Origin: an uncultured candidatus Porisulfidus sp.
Lineage (GTDB): Bacteria > Pseudomonadota > Gammaproteobacteria > Poriferisulfidales > Oxydemutatoraceae
NCBI GenBank assembly: GCA_965199685.1
Contig: OZ241323.1
Coordinates: forward strand, 2,529,940 to 2,593,939
Length of the DNA: 64,000 bases
Direction of reading: 5' to 3'
Notes under the pieces: generated by a model
What the model was told of the DNA's origin: nothing
Seen by the model: the letters and a program-made list of their open reading frames with translations, nothing else
Database searches by the model: none
Program-made: the position numbers and the translations under genes
Part shown: positions 1-59,008 of the stretch, piece after piece
How the letters are laid out: every line of letters starts with the position of its first letter
Position numbering within the stretch: the stretch's first letter is position 1

Positions 1-363
1 TTTGCCAAACATCGCTCGCCCCAGTGAATTTCTTGGCAACATGCCCTTGACAGCTTTCTCTATCACTCGCTCAGGATGCTCCTCCAACAACTTCTGTAGC
101 GATTGTGATTTTAGAGAACCGATATAGCCGCTATGACGGTAATACATTTTGTCGCGCATTTTATTGCCTGACACTGCCACTTTTTCGGCATTGATAACGA
201 TGATGTGATCACCGACATCCATATGCGGGGTGAACTGCGGCTTATGTTTGCCGCGCAAACGCCGTGCCACTTCGGATGCCAGCCTGCCGAGTGGTTGATC
301 AGTTGCATCCACTACAAACCAATCTCGTTTAATTTCATTAGCTTTTGCGCTGTATGTTTTCAT
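1..363 (-). CDS. rplM: 50S ribosomal protein L13 (N-terminal ~121 aa; gene continues past the window start)
   Basis: Reverse-complement translation from the ATG at 363..361 reads [85 protein letters not shown]. This matches the bacterial L13 N-terminus nearly residue for residue. The six-frame track omits it because the window edge removes the stop codon. Confidence 0.8.
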
Positions 364-562
364 TATTAATAACTATTAATTTAATTTATATACTTCCTTC
401 CTTCAAGGCAATGGGCTATCATAAACGAAATGATAGCTTTTAAGCAAGTCTTAATTTTATTGGGAGGGAATTCGTAGTGTATTATACAGCAAAAAGAGCG
501 TATGCGTGGTCTCAAAAACCACCATTCGTCTATCTAATCCTAAAACGATGATAGGAGGTAAT

Positions 563-2200
563 ATGCGTATCGTTATTATCGGGGCAGGCTTTGGTGGGGC
601 ATATACGGCTAAATACCTGCATAAAATCCTAGGCAAAAAACACCAAATAGAAATTATCAACAGAGAAAATTATTTTGTTTTCCAGCCGTTATTGCCGGAA
701 GTTGCATCGGGTGTCATTAATATACAAGATGCGGTCACACCAGTTAGATTAATGCTCAAGGATATAGACGTACGCTTAGCAAGGGTAATCGATATAGATA
801 AAGGCAAACAATGTGTCTATGTTTCCCAAGGTCCCGACTCCAAACTGATTGAAGTGCCGTTTGATCATTTAGTGATTGCCACCGGATTAAAACCTGAGTT
901 GTCTATGTTGCCGGGCTTCACCGAACATGCGCTGACAATGAAAAATCTCTCCGATGCGTATCTGCTTAGAAACCATGTCATTGAGCGTCTGGAAGAATCC
1001 GACAGCTATAAAGACGAGCAAACCATTGCAAAAAATCTATGTTTCGTAGTCGGAGGTGGCGGATTTTCCGGGATTGAAACAATCGGCGAGCTACAAGAAA
1101 TGATACATCGCACCTTGCGCTTCTATCCGCACATAAATAGAGATCAAATACGAATGGTGCTCGTGCATAGCGGCGATAGAATTCTGCCTGAGATGGGTGC
1201 AAAACTCTCGGAATATGTCAGGCATAAACTTGAAGCCAGAGGCATTGAGATTATCACCAACACCATGCTCACCGGAATGACTGCCGAGGCGGTAGAACTC
1301 GATAATGGCAAAATTATCAGCTGTAAAACGGTTGTTTCTACTGTCGGAAATTCGTTGCCGGAAATGGTACAAAACTTAGATTTTACGACTGAACACGGTA
1401 GATTATTGGTAGACGGCAAACTGCGCATTGTCGGTCATTCCAATATCTGGGCATTGGGTGATGTTGCACGGGTACCTAATGCGGTTTCTGAATTTAATCC
1501 CTGCCCACCCACTGCGCAGTTTGCAGTACGCCAAGCACAATGCCTAGCGACCAATATCGCTGCAGAAATAGAAAACCGCCCACTCACCGACTTTGGCTAC
1601 AAACCTAAAGGTTCACTCGCTTCTATCGGCGATTACAAGGGGGTTGCCGAGATCAGAAACTTTCGTATTTCGGGATTTATTGCCTGGGCATTATGGCGGG
1701 TCATTTATTTGGCAATGTTCCCTGGTGCTGTCTCACGGCTTCGCATCGCGCTCAACTGGTTGCTTGATTACTTTGTTCCCCGCAATATCGTCCATATACA
1801 ACAACACCTGCCTTCCAGTACTTGCTTCATACGCTTCAAGGCTGGTGATGTTGTGATCGGAAAAAATCAAATTCTACGCGGCTTATATACCGTAGTCAGA
1901 GGTCGTCTACAATTAGAAGTACATGAAGAAGATGGGAAAGTATTCAAGAGGGAGATTTTACCAGGCGATCATTTCGGCGAACGCACTATAGAAAAAAAGA
2001 TATTAACCACCGGGTCTCTTACCGCACTTGAAGAGAGTTATCTTATGTTTATAGAGCGTTCCGACTTCGCCAAACTGCGCGATTACTTACCCGGCTTCGG
2101 CAAGTACATCTCCTCATTGAATACCATTGCTGCGCGCTATTCAAAATCAATTGATGCCAAGCAGGCTCGCAGAATGCCGGGGATGCGAATACGTAGCTAA
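563..2200 (+). CDS. ndh: Type II NADH dehydrogenase (NDH-2) fused to a C-terminal cyclic-nucleotide-binding domain
   Basis: The start at ATG 563 is preceded by AGGAGG. The N-terminus carries a Rossmann GxGxxG motif (RIVIIGAGFGGAYTAKYL) and a second dinucleotide motif (CFVVGGGGFSGIETIGEL), as in Ndh. The C-terminal ~110 aa (FKAGDVVIGKNQILRGLYTVVRGRLQL...GDHFGERTIE...) has the CAP/cNMP-binding beta-roll signature with the FGE motif. Confidence 0.75.
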   Translation: MRIVIIGAGFGGAYTAKYLHKILGKKHQIEIINRENYFVFQPLLPEVASGVINIQDAVTPVRLMLKDIDVRLARVIDIDKGKQCVYVSQGPDSKLIEVPFDHLVIATGLKPELSMLPGFTEHALTMKNLSDAYLLRNHVIERLEESDSYKDEQTIAKNLCFVVGGGGFSGIETIGELQEMIHRTLRFYPHINRDQIRMVLVHSGDRILPEMGAKLSEYVRHKLEARGIEIITNTMLTGMTAEAVELDNGKIISCKTVVSTVGNSLPEMVQNLDFTTEHGRLLVDGKLRIVGHSNIWALGDVARVPNAVSEFNPCPPTAQFAVRQAQCLATNIAAEIENRPLTDFGYKPKGSLASIGDYKGVAEIRNFRISGFIAWALWRVIYLAMFPGAVSRLRIALNWLLDYFVPRNIVHIQQHLPSSTCFIRFKAGDVVIGKNQILRGLYTVVRGRLQLEVHEEDGKVFKREILPGDHFGERTIEKKILTTGSLTALEESYLMFIERSDFAKLRDYLPGFGKYISSLNTIAARYSKSIDAKQARRMPGMRIRS

Positions 2201-2214
2201 ACGAGCTGCTGAAA

Positions 2215-2468
2215 AAATGGTATTCCCCTTCTATGGAGGGGTGACAGGCCTATGTATTTTGTAATACACGCGTTTAGCAATCATGCTGAGGTTCTGCACA
2301 GTGTCACGCCGATTGACCTACTGGTTCAATCGGCGGCTATATCTGACGGGGTGGTTTTTTGCGTACCCACCATTTAGGACAAGCCTTAGCTTGTCTGACC
2401 TACATACCCATGTTAAGGTTCTGCACAAAGTTACGCCGTTTGTTGCAACAGCAACAAACGGCGGTATA
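2215..2468. repeat. Mosaic of short palindromic repeat modules (families P1-P4), locus R1
   Basis: It contains the palindromes cccctccaaaggagggg and ccgattgacctactggttcaatcgg, each flanked by the box gaggttctgcacagtgtcacgcc. It also contains ggacaagccttagcttgtc and ccgtttgttgcaacagcaacaaacgg. The same modules recur at the other repeat loci. Confidence 0.7.
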
Positions 2469-2496
2469 TAATTCTCTCAAACGGTTTGCTGTAGTT

Positions 2497-3336
2497 ATGC
2501 GATTATTGATTTTAATGTTGATTTTGCTTCCGAGATTTTTCGGTTATGCCGGAGAACACACTGAGGTACATCAGGCGTGTAGTTTGCTTGGCAACAAGCT
2601 GTCCTCGGTAAGCGTGCAAGAGTGTCTGAATCTGCAACTCGTCGGAACTGGTGCTTATACCGAGCAAGGGCACGCAATCCTATACAAGGAATACCCGCCG
2701 CTGGCGAGTAGAAAACCGCTGGCACGGGTTTTGTTTATTGGTGGTACTCACGGAGACGAGTATGCTTCGTTTAGCGTCTCTTTTAAGTGGATGGCAATAC
2801 TAGACCGCCATCATTCGGGGTTATTCCACTGGCATTTTGCACCGGCGATCAACTTGGACGGTTTGCTAAAAAGCCCTGCCACACGCACCAACGCCAATGG
2901 GGTAGATCTAAATAGAAATCTGGCAAGTGCCGATTGGGAAAGCGAAGCATTGTCGTATTGGATGCAGCAAACTGATAGCAACCCCCGTCGTTATCCCGGA
3001 CAATCTGCGCGCAGTGAAAGCGAAAGTCGTTGGCTGGAGCAGGAAATTGAAAACTTTCAACCTGATGTAATCGTCTCGCTACATGCGCCTTATGGCTTGG
3101 TTGACTACGACGGGCCGGCATCAGTAAAGCCTCCCACCTTTCTAGGTTCTTTGAAGTTTAGCGATCTAAAAACCTTTCCCGGTTCTTTAGGCCGTTATGC
3201 CGGCGAAGACTTGGCAATACCAGTGCTAACGATAGAATTGAAATCGGCGCGTTATATGCCCAGCGACCATGATTTGCGAACGATGTGGGTGGATCTAGTG
3301 CGCTGGCTTCGCTATAACGTGCCGCAATCCGACTAA
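2497..3336 (+). CDS. M14 zinc carboxypeptidase family protein (succinylglutamate desuccinylase/aspartoacylase/MpaA-like), secreted
   Basis: Zinc-ligand motifs are present: GGTHGDE (HxxE), NANGVDLNRNL (the M14 NRN motif) and SLHAPYG (the third His). A hydrophobic N-terminus follows the internal Met at 2497. The track ORF start at 2359 runs through a repeat element and is unlikely to be real. Confidence 0.6.
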   Translation: MRLLILMLILLPRFFGYAGEHTEVHQACSLLGNKLSSVSVQECLNLQLVGTGAYTEQGHAILYKEYPPLASRKPLARVLFIGGTHGDEYASFSVSFKWMAILDRHHSGLFHWHFAPAINLDGLLKSPATRTNANGVDLNRNLASADWESEALSYWMQQTDSNPRRYPGQSARSESESRWLEQEIENFQPDVIVSLHAPYGLVDYDGPASVKPPTFLGSLKFSDLKTFPGSLGRYAGEDLAIPVLTIELKSARYMPSDHDLRTMWVDLVRWLRYNVPQSD

Positions 3337-5833: not shown

Positions 5834-8563
5834 TCACGATTGGGGATCTGGTCTTTCTGTCGTTGTAGGTAGCTCTTTTAAGATAGAAAGGTCATAGGTT
5901 GTATTGAGATGATAAATCATCGGTCCTTTATATGGCGGTAAAATCTTAACTGTGGCATACTTCATGATGTTGTCTTCAACCAAATAAAGCATTGCATTAT
6001 CTATTTTTTTTCCGCCTTTACCCGAAACAAGTTTTCTTAAATTAGGAAAGTTATAGTAGCGGTATACTTTATAGTCGGATTTTAGAAAATCAAAAAAGTC
6101 GCGCTGATGTATATCGGACATAACATAAAGCCGAGAGCCTTTACTAATTGAATGTTCCAACACTGATTTAATTTGCTCCTTTGATACCGCAAACGGAAAT
6201 ATGCGTCGCTTGTTATCTCTACCTTCAGTCAATGCGGGCAAATGCATACACGCATAATAAACTTTATTTAGAGGAATGCTGTCATGTTGCTGATCCCATC
6301 CACTGCTGTTTACCCTATCTAAAAAATAACGTTGTGCCGTCATTGCATCCTCACGAGATATGCCTAAGGCATTCAGCATCTCATCAACTATTCTAATTAC
6401 TTTCTCCGAGTCCTGTTTTTCTCTCGTTGAAGGTGGCTCCTTAAAGAGCGAAAGGTCATAGACTGTATTGAGATGGTAACTCATCGGTCCCTTATGTGGC
6501 GGTAAAATCTTCACCGTAGCATACTTCATGATGTTTTTTTCAACTAAATAAAGCATCACATTATCTATTTGGCTGCCGTCCTCACCCGAAACAAGTTTTC
6601 TTAAATTAGGAAAGTCATAATAGCGATATACCTGATAATCTGATCTTAGAAAATCAGAAAACTCAGTCCTATGTATATCGGACATGATATAGAGCCGAGA
6701 ACCTTTGCTAATTGAATGTTTCAGCACTGATTGAATTTGCTTTTTTGATGCCGAAAACGGAAATATGGGTTGCCCGTAATCTCTATCTCTGATCGATGCA
6801 CGCACATGCATACACGCATAATAAACCTTATCCAAAGAAATGTCTTCGTGTTGCAAACCACTTATCTCGTGGTTTGTTCTATTTAGAAAATAATGTTGCG
6901 ATGCCATTGCAACTTTACGAGACACGCCTAAGACATTCAGTGTCTCGTCAACTGTTCTATTTACTTTCTCCGAATACGGAAAGTCTATATAGTAGTCATG
7001 TTGATACTTTTCGCAAGTGCTAACATAATCAAATGCCGGGTCTCTGCGAACCAACACATCATAGCGTTGATTCAGCTCCTCGCTGACGATTTCATCTGCA
7101 GCAAGGCTATATACTTTGTCGGGCGCATAACTAGCCAAATCGAATTCTTCCTCTTTAATCCAACCTTGATTGAGTGTACTAGATTTATGGCCTCCTTGTT
7201 CAAACTGAACAAGGATACTGTTTGATAAATCAAGGTAATCCTCAAAACGCAAGTTGATTCTACTATCACCCAAATTATGCGTTGAACTAATAGTAAATGT
7301 TCCGATGACAGGAATTCTATTTAGGTATTGAGCTTCCCTAAAGATAAGGTTCAACATTCCAAACACGTTATCAACACCGGTTTTACGCCCAGACATGGAA
7401 AATAAGAGATATTTGTTCGGCAGTAAATTTTTATTCAATGAAGATATTACTATCAACTTAGGATTTAATTTTTTCCGTTTAGTAACCCAAAATTTTTTAA
7501 TTTGCCTCCAAAACAGTCTCGTGGGTAACCGTTTTTTCACTGGTTTTTTATAGATTGATCTCGTGGATGGTGGTTTCTTTAAAAAAGTTAGATCGTAAAG
7601 CGTATTAAGGTTATAAATCATTGGGGCTTTGTGGGGTGCTAAAATCTTAACCGTGGCATACTTCATAATGTTTTTTTCAACCAGGTAAAGCATCACATTG
7701 TCTATTTTTTTACCGCCCTCACCCGAAACAAGTCCTCTTAATTTGGGAAAGTCATAATAGCGATATACCCGATAGTCTGATTTTAGAAAATCAAAAAAGT
7801 CAGGCTGATGTATATCGGACATGATATAGAGCCTTGACCTTTTTCTAATGGCGTGTTTAACTACCGACTCTATTTGCTCCTTAGCTGCCACAAATGGGAA
7901 TATGGGTTGCTCGTAATCTCTATCTTCAAAAGCTGCACGCACATGCAGACACGCATAATAAACTTTACGCAGAGGAATACTGTCATATTGCTGATCCCAC
8001 CCGCTACTGTTTACCCTATTTAGAAAATAATGTTGTGCCGCCATCGCATCATGGCGAGATATACCAAAAGCATCTAATACCTTGTCGGTAAGACTGTTTA
8101 CTTTCTCTGAATACAGAAAGTCTATCAAGTATCTATCGTATTTATATTTTTTACAAGCGATAGCATACTTAAATGTCGGGTCTCTACGGATCAACACATC
8201 GTAGTGTTGATTCATTTCTTCGGTGACGATCTCATCGGCGGCAAGGTTATATACTTTGTCGGGTGCATAACTAGCTAAATCCAGTTCTTGTTCTTTCATC
8301 CAATCTAGATGAGACGCAGTGGGTTTATGACATCCTTGATCAAGTTGAACAGTGACGCTGTCTGACAAATCAAGGTAATCTTCAAAGCGCAAATCGGTTC
8401 TGTTATCACCCATGTTATGCGTTTGGCTAATATTAAATTCTCCGATAACAGGAATTCTATTTAGATGTTGAGCCTCCTTGAAAATACGGTTCAACATACC
8501 AAACACATTATCAACACCTGTCTTACGCCTAGTCATCGAAAACAAAAGATATTTTTTTGTCAT
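5834..8563 (-). CDS. Fusion of 2.5 tandem fucosyltransferase-superfamily-like GT modules (module D1 aa 1-333, basic linker, D2 aa 384-715, D3 C-terminal half aa 716-909)
   Basis: Each module carries: KYLLFSMxRxxTGVDNxFGMLNRIFxEAQxLNRIPVIG (compare POFUT1 GYLLY...RFGNQ...LAFAKLLNRTLAVP); FEDYLDL; HVRASIxDRD (the H-[LV]-R Arg motif of GT23/GT65 enzymes); and LYIMSDIH (the hhhh[ST]D motif). D3 lacks the N-terminal ~150 aa, and its HVR motif is degenerate (HLPALT). Confidence 0.45.
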   Translation of the reverse strand: MTKKYLLFSMTRRKTGVDNVFGMLNRIFKEAQHLNRIPVIGEFNISQTHNMGDNRTDLRFEDYLDLSDSVTVQLDQGCHKPTASHLDWMKEQELDLASYAPDKVYNLAADEIVTEEMNQHYDVLIRRDPTFKYAIACKKYKYDRYLIDFLYSEKVNSLTDKVLDAFGISRHDAMAAQHYFLNRVNSSGWDQQYDSIPLRKVYYACLHVRAAFEDRDYEQPIFPFVAAKEQIESVVKHAIRKRSRLYIMSDIHQPDFFDFLKSDYRVYRYYDFPKLRGLVSGEGGKKIDNVMLYLVEKNIMKYATVKILAPHKAPMIYNLNTLYDLTFLKKPPSTRSIYKKPVKKRLPTRLFWRQIKKFWVTKRKKLNPKLIVISSLNKNLLPNKYLLFSMSGRKTGVDNVFGMLNLIFREAQYLNRIPVIGTFTISSTHNLGDSRINLRFEDYLDLSNSILVQFEQGGHKSSTLNQGWIKEEEFDLASYAPDKVYSLAADEIVSEELNQRYDVLVRRDPAFDYVSTCEKYQHDYYIDFPYSEKVNRTVDETLNVLGVSRKVAMASQHYFLNRTNHEISGLQHEDISLDKVYYACMHVRASIRDRDYGQPIFPFSASKKQIQSVLKHSISKGSRLYIMSDIHRTEFSDFLRSDYQVYRYYDFPNLRKLVSGEDGSQIDNVMLYLVEKNIMKYATVKILPPHKGPMSYHLNTVYDLSLFKEPPSTREKQDSEKVIRIVDEMLNALGISREDAMTAQRYFLDRVNSSGWDQQHDSIPLNKVYYACMHLPALTEGRDNKRRIFPFAVSKEQIKSVLEHSISKGSRLYVMSDIHQRDFFDFLKSDYKVYRYYNFPNLRKLVSGKGGKKIDNAMLYLVEDNIMKYATVKILPPYKGPMIYHLNTTYDLSILKELPTTTERPDPQS

Positions 8564-23299: not shown

Positions 23300-23524
23300 A
23301 TGCAACCGGTATACCAAGGAGATGCGATGTTATCAATCAGCGATATATTAATAGGTAATAACGAGATGGACAGCTTTGAAGAACTTATTGCCTATGTGAA
23401 ATCGCAAGCCCGTCAAGGTGAAATGTTTATACAAATGGACGTACGCCCACCATTTTCCGATACACCGGAGGATTGGGAGCAACAAGTGGAAGCTGCGTTT
23501 ACTTCTGCCAGCAATGTGGAATAG
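23300..23524 (+). CDS. Hypothetical small acidic protein
   Basis: The ORF ends 4 nt before the Cas6-like ORF starts. I recognise no motif in it. Confidence 0.25.
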   Translation: MQPVYQGDAMLSISDILIGNNEMDSFEELIAYVKSQARQGEMFIQMDVRPPFSDTPEDWEQQVEAAFTSASNVE

Positions 23525-23528
23525 ATTT

Positions 23529-24230
23529 ATGGAGAACTACTGGCAAGATTCGGAAGAAAAACAGTTGCGAGTGCCCGAAGATGTTGCAGATCTGGGCTTT
23601 AGAATTGAATGTCGCGGCGGCTTGACGGTGGATCATGCGTATGCTTTGTATGAAGCGATTAGACAAGTATTGCCATGGTTTGAGACAGATCCTGATGTTG
23701 CCCTACATACACTGCACGGAGCCGAATCCGGCAACGGATGGTTAAGACCCTATAAAGAAAACCAATTGCTGTATTTATCCAAGCGAACGAGATTACGGTT
23801 GCGCTTAGCCAACCATCGCTTTGAAGATGCGATGGTTTTAGAAGGACAAACAATTGATGTCGGCAGCTGTTCAATAAAAATAAATAAGCCCACTCTGCGC
23901 ACGCTCAGTACACAAACGACTTTGTTCACTAGATCTTTAGCATCGAGAAATACACAAAACGAGCATGAATTTCTGCACGAAGCAACCAGAATGCTCAACG
24001 CGAAGGGCATACATCCGCAGCGTATGATGGGAGGGCGACAGCACGCGATTAAAACCCCCGATAAAACTCTATACGCTAGAAGCCTTATGATAGTGGACCT
24101 TGCTTTTGACGAAAGCATTGAATTGCAACGCACTGGCTTAGGCACTGAACAGAAGCTCGGCTGTGGTATTTTCCTACCTCACAAAAGTATTGATGCGGTT
24201 CACCAACCCCGAACCGTAGGAGCAGACTAG
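23529..24230 (+). CDS. Orphan Cas6-like RAMP-superfamily protein (glycine-rich loop), function unknown
   Basis: The C-terminal GLGTEQKLGCGIFLP fits the RAMP/Cas6 G-rich loop G-h-G-x5-G-h-G and resembles the CasE tail GIGPAKSMGCGLLSL. The N-terminal DHAYALYEAIRQVLPWF resembles the CasE helix around its catalytic His (DLYQLHQGLWHLFP). No cas genes or CRISPR array are nearby. Confidence 0.3.
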   Translation: MENYWQDSEEKQLRVPEDVADLGFRIECRGGLTVDHAYALYEAIRQVLPWFETDPDVALHTLHGAESGNGWLRPYKENQLLYLSKRTRLRLRLANHRFEDAMVLEGQTIDVGSCSIKINKPTLRTLSTQTTLFTRSLASRNTQNEHEFLHEATRMLNAKGIHPQRMMGGRQHAIKTPDKTLYARSLMIVDLAFDESIELQRTGLGTEQKLGCGIFLPHKSIDAVHQPRTVGAD

Positions 24231-43282: not shown

Positions 43283-44699
43283 TGGCAAAAGGAAACTCAA
43301 AAAAGCCCAACGATTAGCACCAAAATGCGTCGGATGGTCTGGGCATCACGAAAGATAACTTAACTTCTCGCGGGGGCTTGTTGCTAGCCCTCAAAGTGGT
43401 CAAATCACTACGACTTAAGAAACTTGCTGATATTTTATTTAGGCGACCGGGTAGCAATCGTGGCTACCTCAATGGCGACATTCTAACGACACTGGTGGCG
43501 ATGCAAACCGACGGTGCGACCAGTTTGAGCGGTGTATTGCGTTTGCGCACGGAGAGCGCATTGCTCAAGCTGGTCGGTATTCGCAAGATACAAGTGTCAA
43601 TACCTTATCGCGGTGGTTGCATGGTCAGGGTCAAGCCGGTGTGCGTTTAATTAACAAGATCAATCAGAGGGTGATTACTGCCACCTTGGCGTGCCGGCAA
43701 GTCACAGAGGTGACGTTGGATATTGATGCGACAGTGATAGAGACTGAGAAATCCAGTGCTACACGCACCTATCAGAACCACCGAGGTTTCACGATGATGG
43801 TCGGCACGCTAGTTGAGGTCGGTCAAGTGATTGCCGCCCAGTTGCGCCACGGCTATGTGTCGCCGAACTTTGACAATATTGGTTTCATCAAGACGTGTCG
43901 AAAGCTGTTGCCGAAAGGTATCCGGCTCAAGTGCGTGCGCAGTGATGCAGCCGGCTATCAACACAAAGTGATTGACTATCTCATCCGCCATCACATTGAG
44001 TTTGTTATTCGTGCGGCAATGAACCCGGCGATTAGTCGCGCCATTGCGGCACTATCGGGGGCGGATTGGCAACGATTGCGATATAAAGACGGCAGTTTAT
44101 CGCAACATGAGTGGGTGGCGCGTTGCACACATGTCATGTATCGTAGCGACAAAGTCATTGACCTCGTCATCCAACGCAACCTCAGGCCACTGCCATTCCA
44201 GAAAAAACAGGCTGCCAAGTTGCTGGGTCGGCAACGGATATTGGATATATTTGTTAATGACACTGTTCAGTACGGCTATCGTGTCATTGCCACCAATATC
44301 AAAGCACTAGACAACTCAGAGATTGTCCACTTCTATAATCAACGCGGCGAGCATTCCGAGAACCATATTAAAGAGTTGAAATCGGACTTTGCCGCCGGTC
44401 GTCCACCATGTAGTGAGTTTGATGCCAATGCGCTGCATGTTGCGGTGTGTGCGTTAGCTTTCAATGTCTTCGCACTGATGCGCCACGGTTTACCCGTCGG
44501 GATGCGCCGTGCCAGGGCATTGACACTGCGAGTGGATTTGTTTGCTTTGGCCGGGAAGATTGTTTACCATGGTCGGCAATGCCACCTCAAACTACCCGAC
44601 GGCTATCTGAGCTTGTTGAGCCGCGCCTTGGCAACCATGCGCTATCATTTGGGTGGGGTGTTGCCGAATCTGCACTCGCCACTGATACAGCCAGACTAG
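43283..44699 (+). mobile_element. IS4/IS1380-like insertion-sequence remnant; transposase broken into at least 3 frames (pseudogene)
   Basis: 43283..43318 encodes MAKGNSKKPND*. After a frame change the IS1380-type N-terminus LTSRGGLLLALKVVKSL appears (ORF 43378..43650). ORF 43617..44699 then carries DDE_Tnp_1 motifs LDIDATVIET, VRSDAAGY and YNQRGEHSENHIKELK. The segment is visibly GC-richer than its flanks. Confidence 0.6.
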
Positions 44700-56839: not shown

Positions 56840-59008
56840 ATGGAAGCATCAAAAACCTTTGCAGGGGATCTTCATAGCAAGCATAGCAAACTTCCGATCT
56901 ACAACATGGCGTTGGATAAGTTGCACTATGCTGTGGGTCGGTATATGACTTCCGATGAAATCAGTCGTGTTCATAGTGCTTATCTGTTTGGTGCCGAGGC
57001 ACATCTGAATCAAACGCGCATCTCGGGCGATCCTTATATTTATCATCCTATACAAGTTGCACAAATAATGGCAGAGCTCCGTTTGGATGCGGTTACCATT
57101 TCTGCGGGCTTGTTGCACGATGTATTGGAGGACACCGTTATTACTAAAGATCAGTTGTCCGAGCAGTTCGGCAAGGCGGTTGCCGAAGTTGTTGACGGGG
57201 TGAGTAAATTGCCCAAGCTGGAATTTGAAAGCAAGGAGATTGGTCAAGCTAAAAACTTTCGGAAGATGCTGTTAGCGATGGCCAAAGACCCGCGTGTCAT
57301 ACTGGTTAAGCTGTCCGATCGTCTACACAATATGCGCACCGTCTACTATTTGCCTTCTCCCAAGCAACGAAGGATCGCTCAAGAGACGCTTGAGATATAC
57401 GCACCGCTAGCGCAATGCTTAGGCATAGACAGGATACGATTGGAGTTGGAAGACCTATCGTTCAAAGCCTTGTATCCGTTGCGCTACAGGGTACTTGAGA
57501 GGGCGGTGCGCAGATACGATAAGCGCAAGGCACTGGTAGAGAAAATGCTGGAAATCTTTCGCGTTCATTTGAAGTCTGCCGAGTTTTCGTATCGTATATA
57601 CGGGCGCAGCAAGCATCTTTACAGCATTTACCGAAAGATGAAAGAACGTAAACATTCTTTGGGTCAAATCTTCGATATTTATGGAATTCGCATCATTGTT
57701 TCCAATGTAGATCATTGCTATCGCATGCTCGGATTGTTACATAATTTGTTCAAGCCGGTGCCTGGTCGCTTCAAGGATTACATTGCATTGCCCAAGCCCA
57801 ATGGTTATCAATCGCTACATACGGTCGTCGTTGGTTCGCAAGGCCTAAAGCTGGAAGTGCAGATTAGAACGCAAGAGATGGAGGAAATCGCAGAGAGCGG
57901 TATCGCTGCACATGCGCTTTATAAGACTGGTGCATCCAGCCGCTCAACAATGGCGCGCCGTTGGATACAAAATCTTATAGGCTTGCAACAAAAGACTGGT
58001 AACAATTCAGCCGAGTATATGGAAAGCCTAAAAACCCAGCTCTTTCCTGTGGAGGTATATGTTTTCACACCGCAAGGAAAGATCATTGTTTTACCGCGTA
58101 AGGCAACGGCACTGGATTTTGCTTTTGCTATCCATACCGACTTGGGGCTTGCGACTGAGCGGGTTCGTGTCAATGGTCACATAGAGGCTCTAAACTACAA
58201 GCTGCAAAGCGGACAAACGGTAGAGGTCATTACTGCGGATAATGTTGCCCCCGACTCTAGGTGGCTTGAGTTTGTAGTAACTGCCAAAGCCCGTACTGCG
58301 ATAGTGCAGTACTTAAAGAACATTGAATCGTACGAAGCAGTTGAGCTGGGACGTTATTTATTAAAGCAAGCTCTGGCAAGTTGCCAACATCGTTTATCGG
58401 ATATATCTAAATCTCGCCTGAGAGAAGTTTTGGAGTCCTTAAAATTAAAGAATGTGAACGAATTATTCAAAGAGATAGGATTGGGTCGGCAGCTTCCCTC
58501 ACTGGTTGTGGTACTTTTGACCGATGTCGCTCAAGCCGATGAGCAGCTTAGCTTGGAGATAGAACCGGAGGCTATTATCAAAGGTATTGAAGGCATGACT
58601 GTGGTCTGTGCTAAGTGCTGTTTCCCTATTCCTGGTGACCCGATTACTGGAGTGATGAGCCCGGGCAAAGGTTTGGTGATACATCGTGAAAGTTGTGCCA
58701 ATGTGCATGCCAAAAATGTGCGGAGGATTCTACTTAATTGGGCAGACAAGCCGAATACCTTAGCGGAGTATTCTGCTGCCATTCGTATCGTCGTGCCTCA
58801 TCGCAGCGGTGTGTTGGCAACCTTAGCATCAAAGATAGCGCAGACTGGTTCCAACATAAAGAATGTCTTCTTAGACGAGCAAGGTGTCGGCAGTGCGGCG
58901 ATTACTTTCGTGCTTAGCGTGCGCGACACCAATCAATTAGATAAAATAATGAGACGCATTAACCAAGCATTTGAAGGTGTTAAGGTATCCAGGGTTGAAT
59001 ACCGCTAA
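56840..59008 (+). CDS. spoT: Bifunctional (p)ppGpp synthetase/hydrolase
   Basis: An HD hydrolase domain (HPIQVAQIMAELRLD...LLHDVLEDT) and a synthetase domain (YGRSKHLYSIYRKM, GYQSLHT) are followed by TGS and ACT regions. Alternative start MALDKL at about 56909. Confidence 0.85.
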   Translation: MEASKTFAGDLHSKHSKLPIYNMALDKLHYAVGRYMTSDEISRVHSAYLFGAEAHLNQTRISGDPYIYHPIQVAQIMAELRLDAVTISAGLLHDVLEDTVITKDQLSEQFGKAVAEVVDGVSKLPKLEFESKEIGQAKNFRKMLLAMAKDPRVILVKLSDRLHNMRTVYYLPSPKQRRIAQETLEIYAPLAQCLGIDRIRLELEDLSFKALYPLRYRVLERAVRRYDKRKALVEKMLEIFRVHLKSAEFSYRIYGRSKHLYSIYRKMKERKHSLGQIFDIYGIRIIVSNVDHCYRMLGLLHNLFKPVPGRFKDYIALPKPNGYQSLHTVVVGSQGLKLEVQIRTQEMEEIAESGIAAHALYKTGASSRSTMARRWIQNLIGLQQKTGNNSAEYMESLKTQLFPVEVYVFTPQGKIIVLPRKATALDFAFAIHTDLGLATERVRVNGHIEALNYKLQSGQTVEVITADNVAPDSRWLEFVVTAKARTAIVQYLKNIESYEAVELGRYLLKQALASCQHRLSDISKSRLREVLESLKLKNVNELFKEIGLGRQLPSLVVVLLTDVAQADEQLSLEIEPEAIIKGIEGMTVVCAKCCFPIPGDPITGVMSPGKGLVIHRESCANVHAKNVRRILLNWADKPNTLAEYSAAIRIVVPHRSGVLATLASKIAQTGSNIKNVFLDEQGVGSAAITFVLSVRDTNQLDKIMRRINQAFEGVKVSRVEYR

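Follow-up and report, generated by a model that had tools for sequence, protein, structure and literature searches.

Can the enzyme through which electrons enter a respiratory chain carry a small-molecule sensor of its own? The question is raised by one gene on contig OZ241323.1 of an uncultured Candidatus Porisulfidus sp., lying near the start of a stretch of 64,000 nucleotides that we call the window (the whole stretch of DNA analysed). This gene encodes a type II NADH dehydrogenase (NDH-2) fused to a cyclic-nucleotide-binding (CNB) domain. NDH-2 is commonly regarded as an uncomplicated enzyme whose control is transcriptional, and the only built-in regulation met in the literature consulted is the EF-hand (Ca2+) or CxxC insertion of some NDH-2s.

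An initial annotation of this gene had proposed direct allosteric control by cAMP or cGMP. For the window protein that proposal is unsupported, since a threonine stands where CNB domains generally carry the arginine that clamps the cyclic phosphate. The domain itself is maintained by purifying selection as strong as that acting on the catalytic core. We favour a reading in which the CNB domain is an allosteric sensor for a variant ligand, that is, one whose effector would not be cAMP or cGMP bound in the canonical way. Judged from sequence and a structural model, we give this reading a probability of roughly 0.45. If such a sensor is coupled to the quinone-site helices, a small molecule could tune respiratory electron entry post-translationally.

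The CNB domain and its variant cassette

The features on which the argument turns are listed here (window coordinates, strand and residues of the predicted protein).

563..2200, plus strand: complete NDH-2/CNB fusion gene, 545 amino acids plus stop (open reading frame, Pfam architecture and a 97%-identical protein in a 2.49 Mb 'Ca. Porisulfidus' metagenome-assembled genome)
1820..2125, plus strand: CNB-fold domain, residues 420–521 (PF00027, PDB profile matches, modelled secondary structure)
1964..2026, plus strand: variant phosphate-binding cassette G468-D-H470-F-G472-E473-R-T-I-E-K-K-I-L-T482-T-G484-S-L-T-A488 (ungapped alignment to PKG)
2006..2008, plus strand: T482, in place of the canonical phosphate-clamping arginine (R209 of PKA RI-alpha; ungapped pairwise and profile alignments to PKG and PKA)
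2126..2197, plus strand: C-terminal tail, residues 522–545, with the partial clade-specific motif R-Y526-S-K-S-I-D

The presence of a CAP-family domain in the last 110 or so residues (about 1820..2140), as first annotated, is borne out by several lines of evidence. The cNMP_binding family (PF00027) scores 48.6 bits on the whole protein and 51.7 bits on the C-terminal 146 residues alone, against a cutoff of 27.5. A profile made from the beta-roll alone matches the domains of PKG, PKA-R, Epac and CRP in the PDB (E 1e-24 to 1e-12). In addition, an AlphaFold2 model built from a 68-sequence family alignment has a mean predicted local distance difference test score (pLDDT) of 89.6 and a predicted template modelling score of 0.87 over the whole chain, consistent with a defined domain arrangement; a single-sequence AlphaFold model (pLDDT 32) was not used. 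Residues 420–521 are modelled with block pLDDT of about 89–97 as a beta-roll (420–498), a cassette helix (473–477), a hinge helix (499–508) and a lid helix (510–521). The model thus has the superfamily fold: eight strands form the beta-roll, the short cassette helix sits between beta6 and beta7, and hinge and lid helices come after. A Foldseek search of the PDB with the full model matched only NDH-2, SQR, CoADR and FSP1 bodies and was uninformative on the CNB part.

Of the Arg/Glu pair that marks a conserved phosphate-binding cassette, the glutamate is kept (E473) and the arginine is not (T482). The stretch GDHFGERTIE, singled out in the initial annotation, corresponds to residues 468–477 (nucleotides 1964–1993). 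Family conservation was counted over 121 sequences. H470 and G472 are invariant, E473 is found in 111 of the 121 (with Asp in 8) and G484 in 117; in the hinge and lid, F502 and Y515 (lid helix) are invariant and D501 is kept in 118. In terms of a functional receptor, G472-E473 supplies the Gly-Glu that contacts the ribose 2'-OH, and the phosphate-neutralising arginine is missing. The family pattern G-E-R-x-[LI]-x-x-x-x-x-T-x-G-[TS]-L-T-A pairs without gaps to G-E-A-A-L-I-H-N-T-Q-R-S-A-T-I-I-A of PKG, which places T482 at +9 from the cassette glutamate, and the spacing of CRP (R82) would put the arginine at 483, where the protein has T483 (+10). Among the best 120 database clusters the +9 residue is Thr in 101 (84%) and Arg in one. 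The 49 complete cassettes from 51 species-level genomes have Thr in 35, Ser, Cys, Ala, Val or Met in 14 and Arg in none.

Directly after the lid, many family members carry a short motif, Y-[ASP]-x-x-[LIVAM]-[RK] (consensus K-I-Y-A-P-S-L-R). It occurs in 105 of 150 sequences with an intact H-x-G-E cassette and in none of the 21 without one, a co-occurrence count that is inflated by shared ancestry. The tail of the window protein matches it only in part (R-Y-S-K-S-I-D, residues 525–531, nucleotides 2135–2155), and this tail is modelled with a pLDDT of about 84 as far as about residue 530.

The strength of selection was estimated from the ratio of nonsynonymous to synonymous substitution (dN/dS) between the window gene and its three nearest genomes, with synonymous divergence (dS) of 0.25–0.97. 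The ratio is 0.03–0.075 for the CNB domain, 0.09–0.10 for the catalytic core and 0–0.11 for the anchor and linker. The last 14 residues are relaxed (about 0.3) and form the least constrained segment. The CNB domain is thus still functional, under purifying selection as strong as on the catalytic core, and the idea that it is a decaying relic is ruled out by these values.

The NDH-2 part and its junction with the CNB domain

The remaining features of the gene are as follows.

553..558, plus strand: Shine-Dalgarno sequence AGGAGG, 5 nt before the ATG at 563 (read off the sequence)
563..1534, plus strand: flavoprotein core with two dinucleotide-binding sites, Pyr_redox_2, residues 1–324 (Pfam 1.9e-43, PDB NDH-2 matches, Foldseek)
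581..598, plus strand: FAD-binding GxGxxG, G7-A-G9-F-G-G12 (G7, G9, F10 and G12 invariant in 121 sequences)
1055..1078, plus strand: NAD(P)H-binding GGGFSGxE, G165–E172 (G165, G167, F168, S169, G170 and E172 invariant in 121 sequences)
1166..1168, plus strand: H202, at the site of the acidic NADH-specificity residue (alignment to E198 of C. thermarum NDH-2)
1505..1540, plus strand: quinone-site motif region PPTAQFAVRQAQ, residues 315–326 (aligns to PPTAQIAIQHGE of 4nwz)
1607..1783, plus strand: NDH-2 C-terminal membrane-interaction module, NDH2_C, residues 349–407 (Pfam 43.7 bits; modelled amphipathic helices 372–385 and 389–404)
1778..1819, plus strand: linker P406-R407-x-I-V410... from the last anchor helix to CNB beta-strand 1 (P406, R407 and V410 invariant)

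The open reading frame (ORF) runs from 506 to 2200 on the plus strand. We favour the ATG at 563 over the GTG at 506 as the start because a Shine-Dalgarno sequence lies just before it, close relatives are 545 residues long and the same methionine opens the proteins of the three nearest genomes, which share the N-terminus MRIVIIGAGFGG. Three Pfam families match above their curated thresholds: Pyr_redox_2 (residues 1–324), NDH2_C (PF22366, residues 349–407, with a cutoff of 27.7 bits) and cNMP_binding (residues 423–505). No NCBIfam model is reached by the fusion protein, the best being TIGR03169 with 127 bits against a cutoff of 310.

The annotation of the N-terminus as an NDH-2 with both GxGxxG motifs stands, and covers about 410 residues. 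By phmmer the closest solved relatives are the NDH-2s 9mqy (mycobacterial, 6.7e-45) and 4nwz (Caldalkalibacillus thermarum, 4e-42), with SQR and CoADR far weaker (1e-8 to 1e-12). By Foldseek, 4nwz superposes on the first 400 or so modelled residues with a template modelling (TM) score, normalised to the target, of 0.90. The G-D motif is kept (G299 in 121 of 121, D300 in 120), as are P315, T317, A318 and Q319, which are invariant in the family. The AQxAxQ quinone-site motif defined in PMC5299459 reads A318-Q319-F-A321-V-R323 here; its first four positions are conserved, and its last Gln varies across the family (Arg in 86, Ala in 21 and Gln in 12 of 121), the window protein having Arg. In the first amphipathic helix W375, W378, R379 and Y382 are invariant, and I381 aligns to the quinone-site residue I379 of C. 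thermarum NDH-2. Because both GxGxxG motifs, E172, T317-A318-Q319 and the residues of the first anchor helix are invariant, we regard the NDH-2 part, a predicted monotopic flavoenzyme, as catalytically intact, with its activity predicted from sequence.

The cofactor preference may be broader than the name suggests. The role of E198 in NADH specificity, and the effect of changing this Glu to Gln, are described in PMC5220320. At the equivalent position the family has Gln in 103, His in 17 and Glu in one of 121 sequences, so the Glu or Asp that ends beta2 of the NADH domain in the NADH-specific NDH-2 subgroup is absent from the window protein. Most family members read Gln-Arg at this site, and the window protein has His. 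Since the acidic NADH-specificity residue is absent, the fusion enzymes may oxidise NADPH as well as NADH. A possible draining of NADPH bears on redox balance in abundant Gammaproteobacteria of marine sediment, the water column and sponges (as symbionts).

The two halves meet in the most conserved stretch of the protein. L397, W399, D402, P406, R407 and V410 are invariant, and N398 and Y403 are each found in 120 of 121 sequences. The linker is modelled as a coil of 15 residues (405–419, block pLDDT 77–83), and the separate N-terminal helices or helical bundle of a CNB domain are absent from the model, their place being occupied by the NDH-2 anchor helices. Such conservation of the junction would be expected if the sensor were mechanically coupled to the helices of the anchor and quinone tunnel.

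Distribution of the fusion and an arginine-bearing sister clade

The best 120 database clusters (45–97% identity) all have the four-domain architecture of the fusion, under generic names only (e.g. 'FAD-dependent oxidoreductase' or 'NADH dehydrogenase'). A fusion-specific peptide pattern, LNW[LF][FL]DYF, recovers at least 51 species-level genomes, nearly all of them marine Gammaproteobacteria, with one Gemmatimonadales. Among them is the lineage of the window itself, 'Candidatus Porisulfidus' / Oxydemutatoraceae, where identity is 99% in the C-terminal 161 residues and 97% for the whole protein. Also represented are Woeseiaceae, Halieaceae, other Pseudomonadales, Wenzhouxiangellaceae, Cellvibrionaceae, Ca. 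Endobugula, Alcanivorax, Lysobacterales and Ca. Porifericomitales. The genus name Porisulfidus occurs in a report on a sponge-associated metagenome.

A search of papers readable without subscription turned up none that joins an NDH-2 to a CNB domain. The main comparison of the NDH-2 family left out sequences with domains fused at either end; EF-hand and CxxC insertions are the sole candidates that it gives for a regulatory element (PMC5299459). The fusion can be seen in precomputed Pfam annotation, yet looks uncharacterised. Its description as uncommon therefore holds for the searchable literature, where it is undescribed, but not for the marine Gammaproteobacteria, where it is common.

When representative sequences were searched exhaustively with the beta-roll profile, multi-CNB proteins crowded the result, their scores being summed over domains, and no family size follows from it. 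The single-domain matches included fragments of more distant NDH-2/CNB fusions with the cassette G-x-H-F-G-E-R-V-L-L-x-S-x-L-R-T-G. A homolog search seeded with one such fragment returned 112 proteins, the named ones from the alphaproteobacterium Methyloceanibacter. This sister clade (Methyloceanibacter-like; P0272, P0288 and others) resembles the window protein in its architecture, its linker LxNW...P[PR]xIV and the His-Phe-Gly-Glu-Arg that starts the cassette. It differs in keeping Arg-Thr-Gly, with Arg at +9 in 88 of 98 complete cassettes, and in having its own tail motif, YIE[KR]TFGG...FAPGS. The post-lid motif described above is absent from the search set of this arginine-bearing clade (0 of 115). 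Among its database entries (P0188, P0191, P0221, P0243, P0266 and P0271–P0362) short fragments are frequent, also where the contig exceeds 100 kb; this points to gene calls broken by frameshifts in long-read metagenome-assembled genomes (MAGs).

The two clades have the His before [FW]-G-E in common and their linkers are homologous, which makes a single origin of the fusion probable. As the arginine is general among CNB domains and is kept by the sister clade, the clade of the window protein is most simply seen as a derived Arg-to-Thr variant. Judged from these sequences, direct control by a cyclic nucleoside monophosphate (cNMP) is a weak proposition for the window protein but a plausible one for the sister clade, where it would sooner be expected. 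The pair of clades, with and without the arginine, provides a natural experiment on change of ligand specificity in a CNB domain.

What the domain may sense

In the sensor reading, binding of an effector would move the hinge and lid of the CNB domain, and the linker would relay this movement to the anchor helices lining the quinone tunnel. Displacement of these helices would in turn tune access of the quinone or docking to the membrane. As for the effector in the window clade, the more likely candidate appears to be a ligand with a ribose but no charge to be neutralised, similar to the nucleosides bound by trypanosomatid PKA; the alternative is a cyclic nucleotide bound weakly or in another way. 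The precedent comes from the regulatory subunits of trypanosomatid PKA, in which the arginines are replaced (Thr318/Asn442), Gly-Glu is kept and cAMP is ignored. Their CNB domains bind inosine, guanosine and adenosine at nanomolar affinity, and the double change T318R + E311A turns such a domain back into a cyclic-nucleotide receptor (PMC10959531). We take the analogy as a lead, not as a sign of membership.

Several points weigh against this reading. The second hallmark of the trypanosomatid proteins (Ala202 to Glu) is absent, position 475 being Thr here and S, T, L or A in the family. Thr482 is conserved at only 84%. In 9 of the 51 genomes the domain persists although Gly-Glu too has been lost, a pattern that a role without any ligand would explain equally well or better. 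The proposed interface and coupling path are drawn from conservation and topology only. Moreover, R474 and H470, which lie beside the pocket, could in principle supply other phosphate contacts and so allow cNMP binding. This last point leads to the interpretation of the initial annotation, in which the domain binds cAMP or cGMP and switches the NDH-2 allosterically, placing respiratory-chain entry under second-messenger control. It accords with a Pfam match above threshold, with the retention of Gly-Glu, the hinge and lid helices and the invariant lid Tyr515, and with the canonical R-T-G cassette of the sister clade, from which the ancestral fusion was probably cNMP-responsive. Yet the clamp arginine is Thr482, and its near-absence from the clusters and genome cassettes extends this to the clade. 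In PKA the charge of the cyclic phosphate is neutralised by the cassette arginine, and the trypanosomatid enzymes, which are independent of cAMP, lack this residue (PMC10959531). Among 44 ORFs of at least 150 residues scanned in the 64-kb window, none was found to encode a nucleotidyl cyclase, a cNMP phosphodiesterase or another CNB protein; this weighs little, as the window is about 2.6% of a genome of some 2.5 Mb. On balance we consider canonical cNMP control of the window protein improbable. A more specific proposal is a ligand switch within the family: the ancestral, alphaproteobacterial-type clade would sense cAMP or cGMP, and the marine gammaproteobacterial clade (Arg to Thr, new tail motif) would sense a non-cyclic ribose metabolite or its own tail. 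The sequences leave us doubtful of this, though we retain it as a tentative scenario.

The domain might also have lost sensing altogether and serve in dimerisation, membrane docking, autoinhibition or partner binding, with its pocket possibly filled by its own tail. The clade-wide loss of the arginine speaks for such a role, as does the loss of Gly-Glu and His in Halieaceae, some Woeseiaceae and others that keep the domain. So does the distribution of the post-lid motif, which in the sets compared occurs only with the intact cassettes of this clade, together with the modelling of the tail up to about residue 530. CNB-homology domains of KCNH channels carry an intrinsic ligand directly after the lid helix, and by analogy the post-lid motif may be one. 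On the other hand, G472-E473, H470 and Tyr515 are near-invariant in most of the clade, which is more like a working binding site; the tail of the window protein has only the partial motif and is its least constrained segment; and the co-occurrence statistic is inflated, as noted. We therefore hold a ligand-independent module to be possible but unlikely. That the fusion is itself an artefact (a frameshift, a misassembly or a read-through of two adjacent genes) has next to no probability. No evidence for it was found beyond the fragmentary entries of the sister clade, which show that gene calls in MAGs can be imperfect. Against it stands the same uninterrupted ORF in 120 independent clusters and 51 genomes from different studies, with the junction as the most conserved part of the protein and purifying selection acting across it.

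Genomic neighbourhood of the fusion gene

1..363, minus strand: rplM (ribosomal protein L13), N-terminal part, divergent neighbour that runs off the window (reverse-complement reading; L13 and S9 at the same place in a near-identical MAG)

In other lineages the fusion gene stands in a conserved order: a thiamine-diphosphate (TPP) enzyme (15 of 51), an aldehyde dehydrogenase (19 of 51, mostly on the same strand), the fusion gene and a malic enzyme (11 of 51). This neighbourhood spans about 4 kb upstream and 2 kb downstream (L009, L010, L016, L020, L021 and others). Aldehyde dehydrogenase and malic enzyme both yield NAD(P)H, and the arrangement suggests a link between the fusion and a specific NAD(P)H-producing pathway. 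It is absent in the window lineage, where the gene stands alone between the divergent rplM and a peptidase M14 gene.

The region between rplM and the fusion gene (364–562) is 89% conserved over four genomes, whose coding dS is 0.25–0.97. It contains a conserved perfect palindrome or hairpin (within 414–441), GCTATCAT-AAACGAA-ATGATAGC, followed by TTTT; its outer G-T pair in the window is G-C in two of the compared genomes (L003, L004). The hairpin might serve as an operator or form a structure in a leader RNA. No Rfam family matches 1..2600 at E <= 1, and in a promoter and terminator scan of 1..3000 sites were no more frequent than in shuffled sequence. The region upstream of the ribosomal-protein genes varies between strains: in the closest MAG (L001, 1–836 and 4393–5382), IS110-family transposases and a HipA/HipB pair lie near the orthologous locus.

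Other features of the window

5834..8563, minus strand: 909-residue protein with three internal repeats of about 300 residues and no significant Pfam domain
8580..11964: three ORFs without a Pfam match
12131..14983, plus strand: 950-residue protein with a C-terminal IpgD-type phosphoinositide phosphatase domain (PF05925, 8e-60)
23418..24230, plus strand: Cas6 gene (PF09559, 2.5e-55)
43617..44699, plus strand: DDE transposase
56840..59008, plus strand: bifunctional RelA/SpoT homologue (HD, RelA_SpoT, TGS, ACT)

The repeat unit of the 909-residue protein contains ...KYLLFSM.RRKTGVDNVFGMLN... and ...SRLYIMSDIH..FFDFLKSDY.VYRYY.FP.LR.LVSG... The IpgD-type protein adjoins this repeat protein. Effectors of the IpgD type are known from intracellular pathogens, and the two proteins are possibly part of a host-interaction island. 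The Cas6 gene has a ParA-like ATPase and an HNH endonuclease as neighbours, and no other cas genes were found among the ORFs scanned. The RelA/SpoT homologue is the sole nucleotide second-messenger enzyme seen in the window.

Comparison with known systems

Compared with canonical bacterial NDH-2s (C. thermarum 4nwz, M. smegmatis 9mqy, S. aureus 5na1), the window protein shares the fold (TM 0.90, 25–30% identity), both GxGxxG motifs, E172, the G-D motif, the PPTAQ quinone-site region and the two C-terminal amphipathic helices. It departs from them in about 140 extra C-terminal residues with the CNB fold, in His or Gln at the site of E198 and in Arg for the last Gln of AQxAxQ. EF-hand NDH-2s (N. 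crassa NDE1 and the plant NDB type) likewise contain a ligand sensor of their own, for which a role in regulating activity has been proposed, and a title cited in PMC5299459 names NDE1 a calcium-dependent NADPH dehydrogenase. These enzymes are, however, eukaryotic and respond to Ca2+, and their sensor is inserted between the GD motif and helix alpha7 instead of at the C-terminus. The window protein is not of this type: it gives no EF-hand match at E <= 1, and residues 300–318 hold no long insertion. An extra C-terminal domain within the same flavoprotein superfamily is likewise seen in CoA-disulfide or persulfide reductases with a C-terminal rhodanese (3icr, 3nta), which differ in that the added domain is catalytic, with an active-site Cys, and the enzymes are soluble and not quinone reductases.

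On the side of the sensor, the beta-roll, cassette helix, hinge, lid and Gly-Glu are those of canonical CNB domains (PKG, PKA-R, Epac, CRP). The differences are the replacement of the cassette Arg by Thr, a Gly (G484) for the Ala after [ST], an invariant His before [FW]-G-E, the lack of a separate N-terminal helical bundle and the attachment to a membrane flavoenzyme. The trypanosomatid PKA regulatory subunit (6flo, 6hyi) offers a parallel for the cassette: there too the arginine gives way to a polar residue (T318 of site A, T482 here) and Gly-Glu is kept. It also has an aromatic residue in the C-terminal helices, as the window protein does, which in the trypanosomatid subunit caps the ligand (PMC10959531). 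The window protein lacks the Ala202-to-Glu change, which contacts the ribose 3'/5' OH and clashes with a phosphate (T475 here), and the scaffold and host protein are unrelated. Ultimately, if the ligand switch between the two fusion clades were real, bacteria would have their own counterpart of the change from cAMP to nucleosides seen in trypanosomatid PKA.

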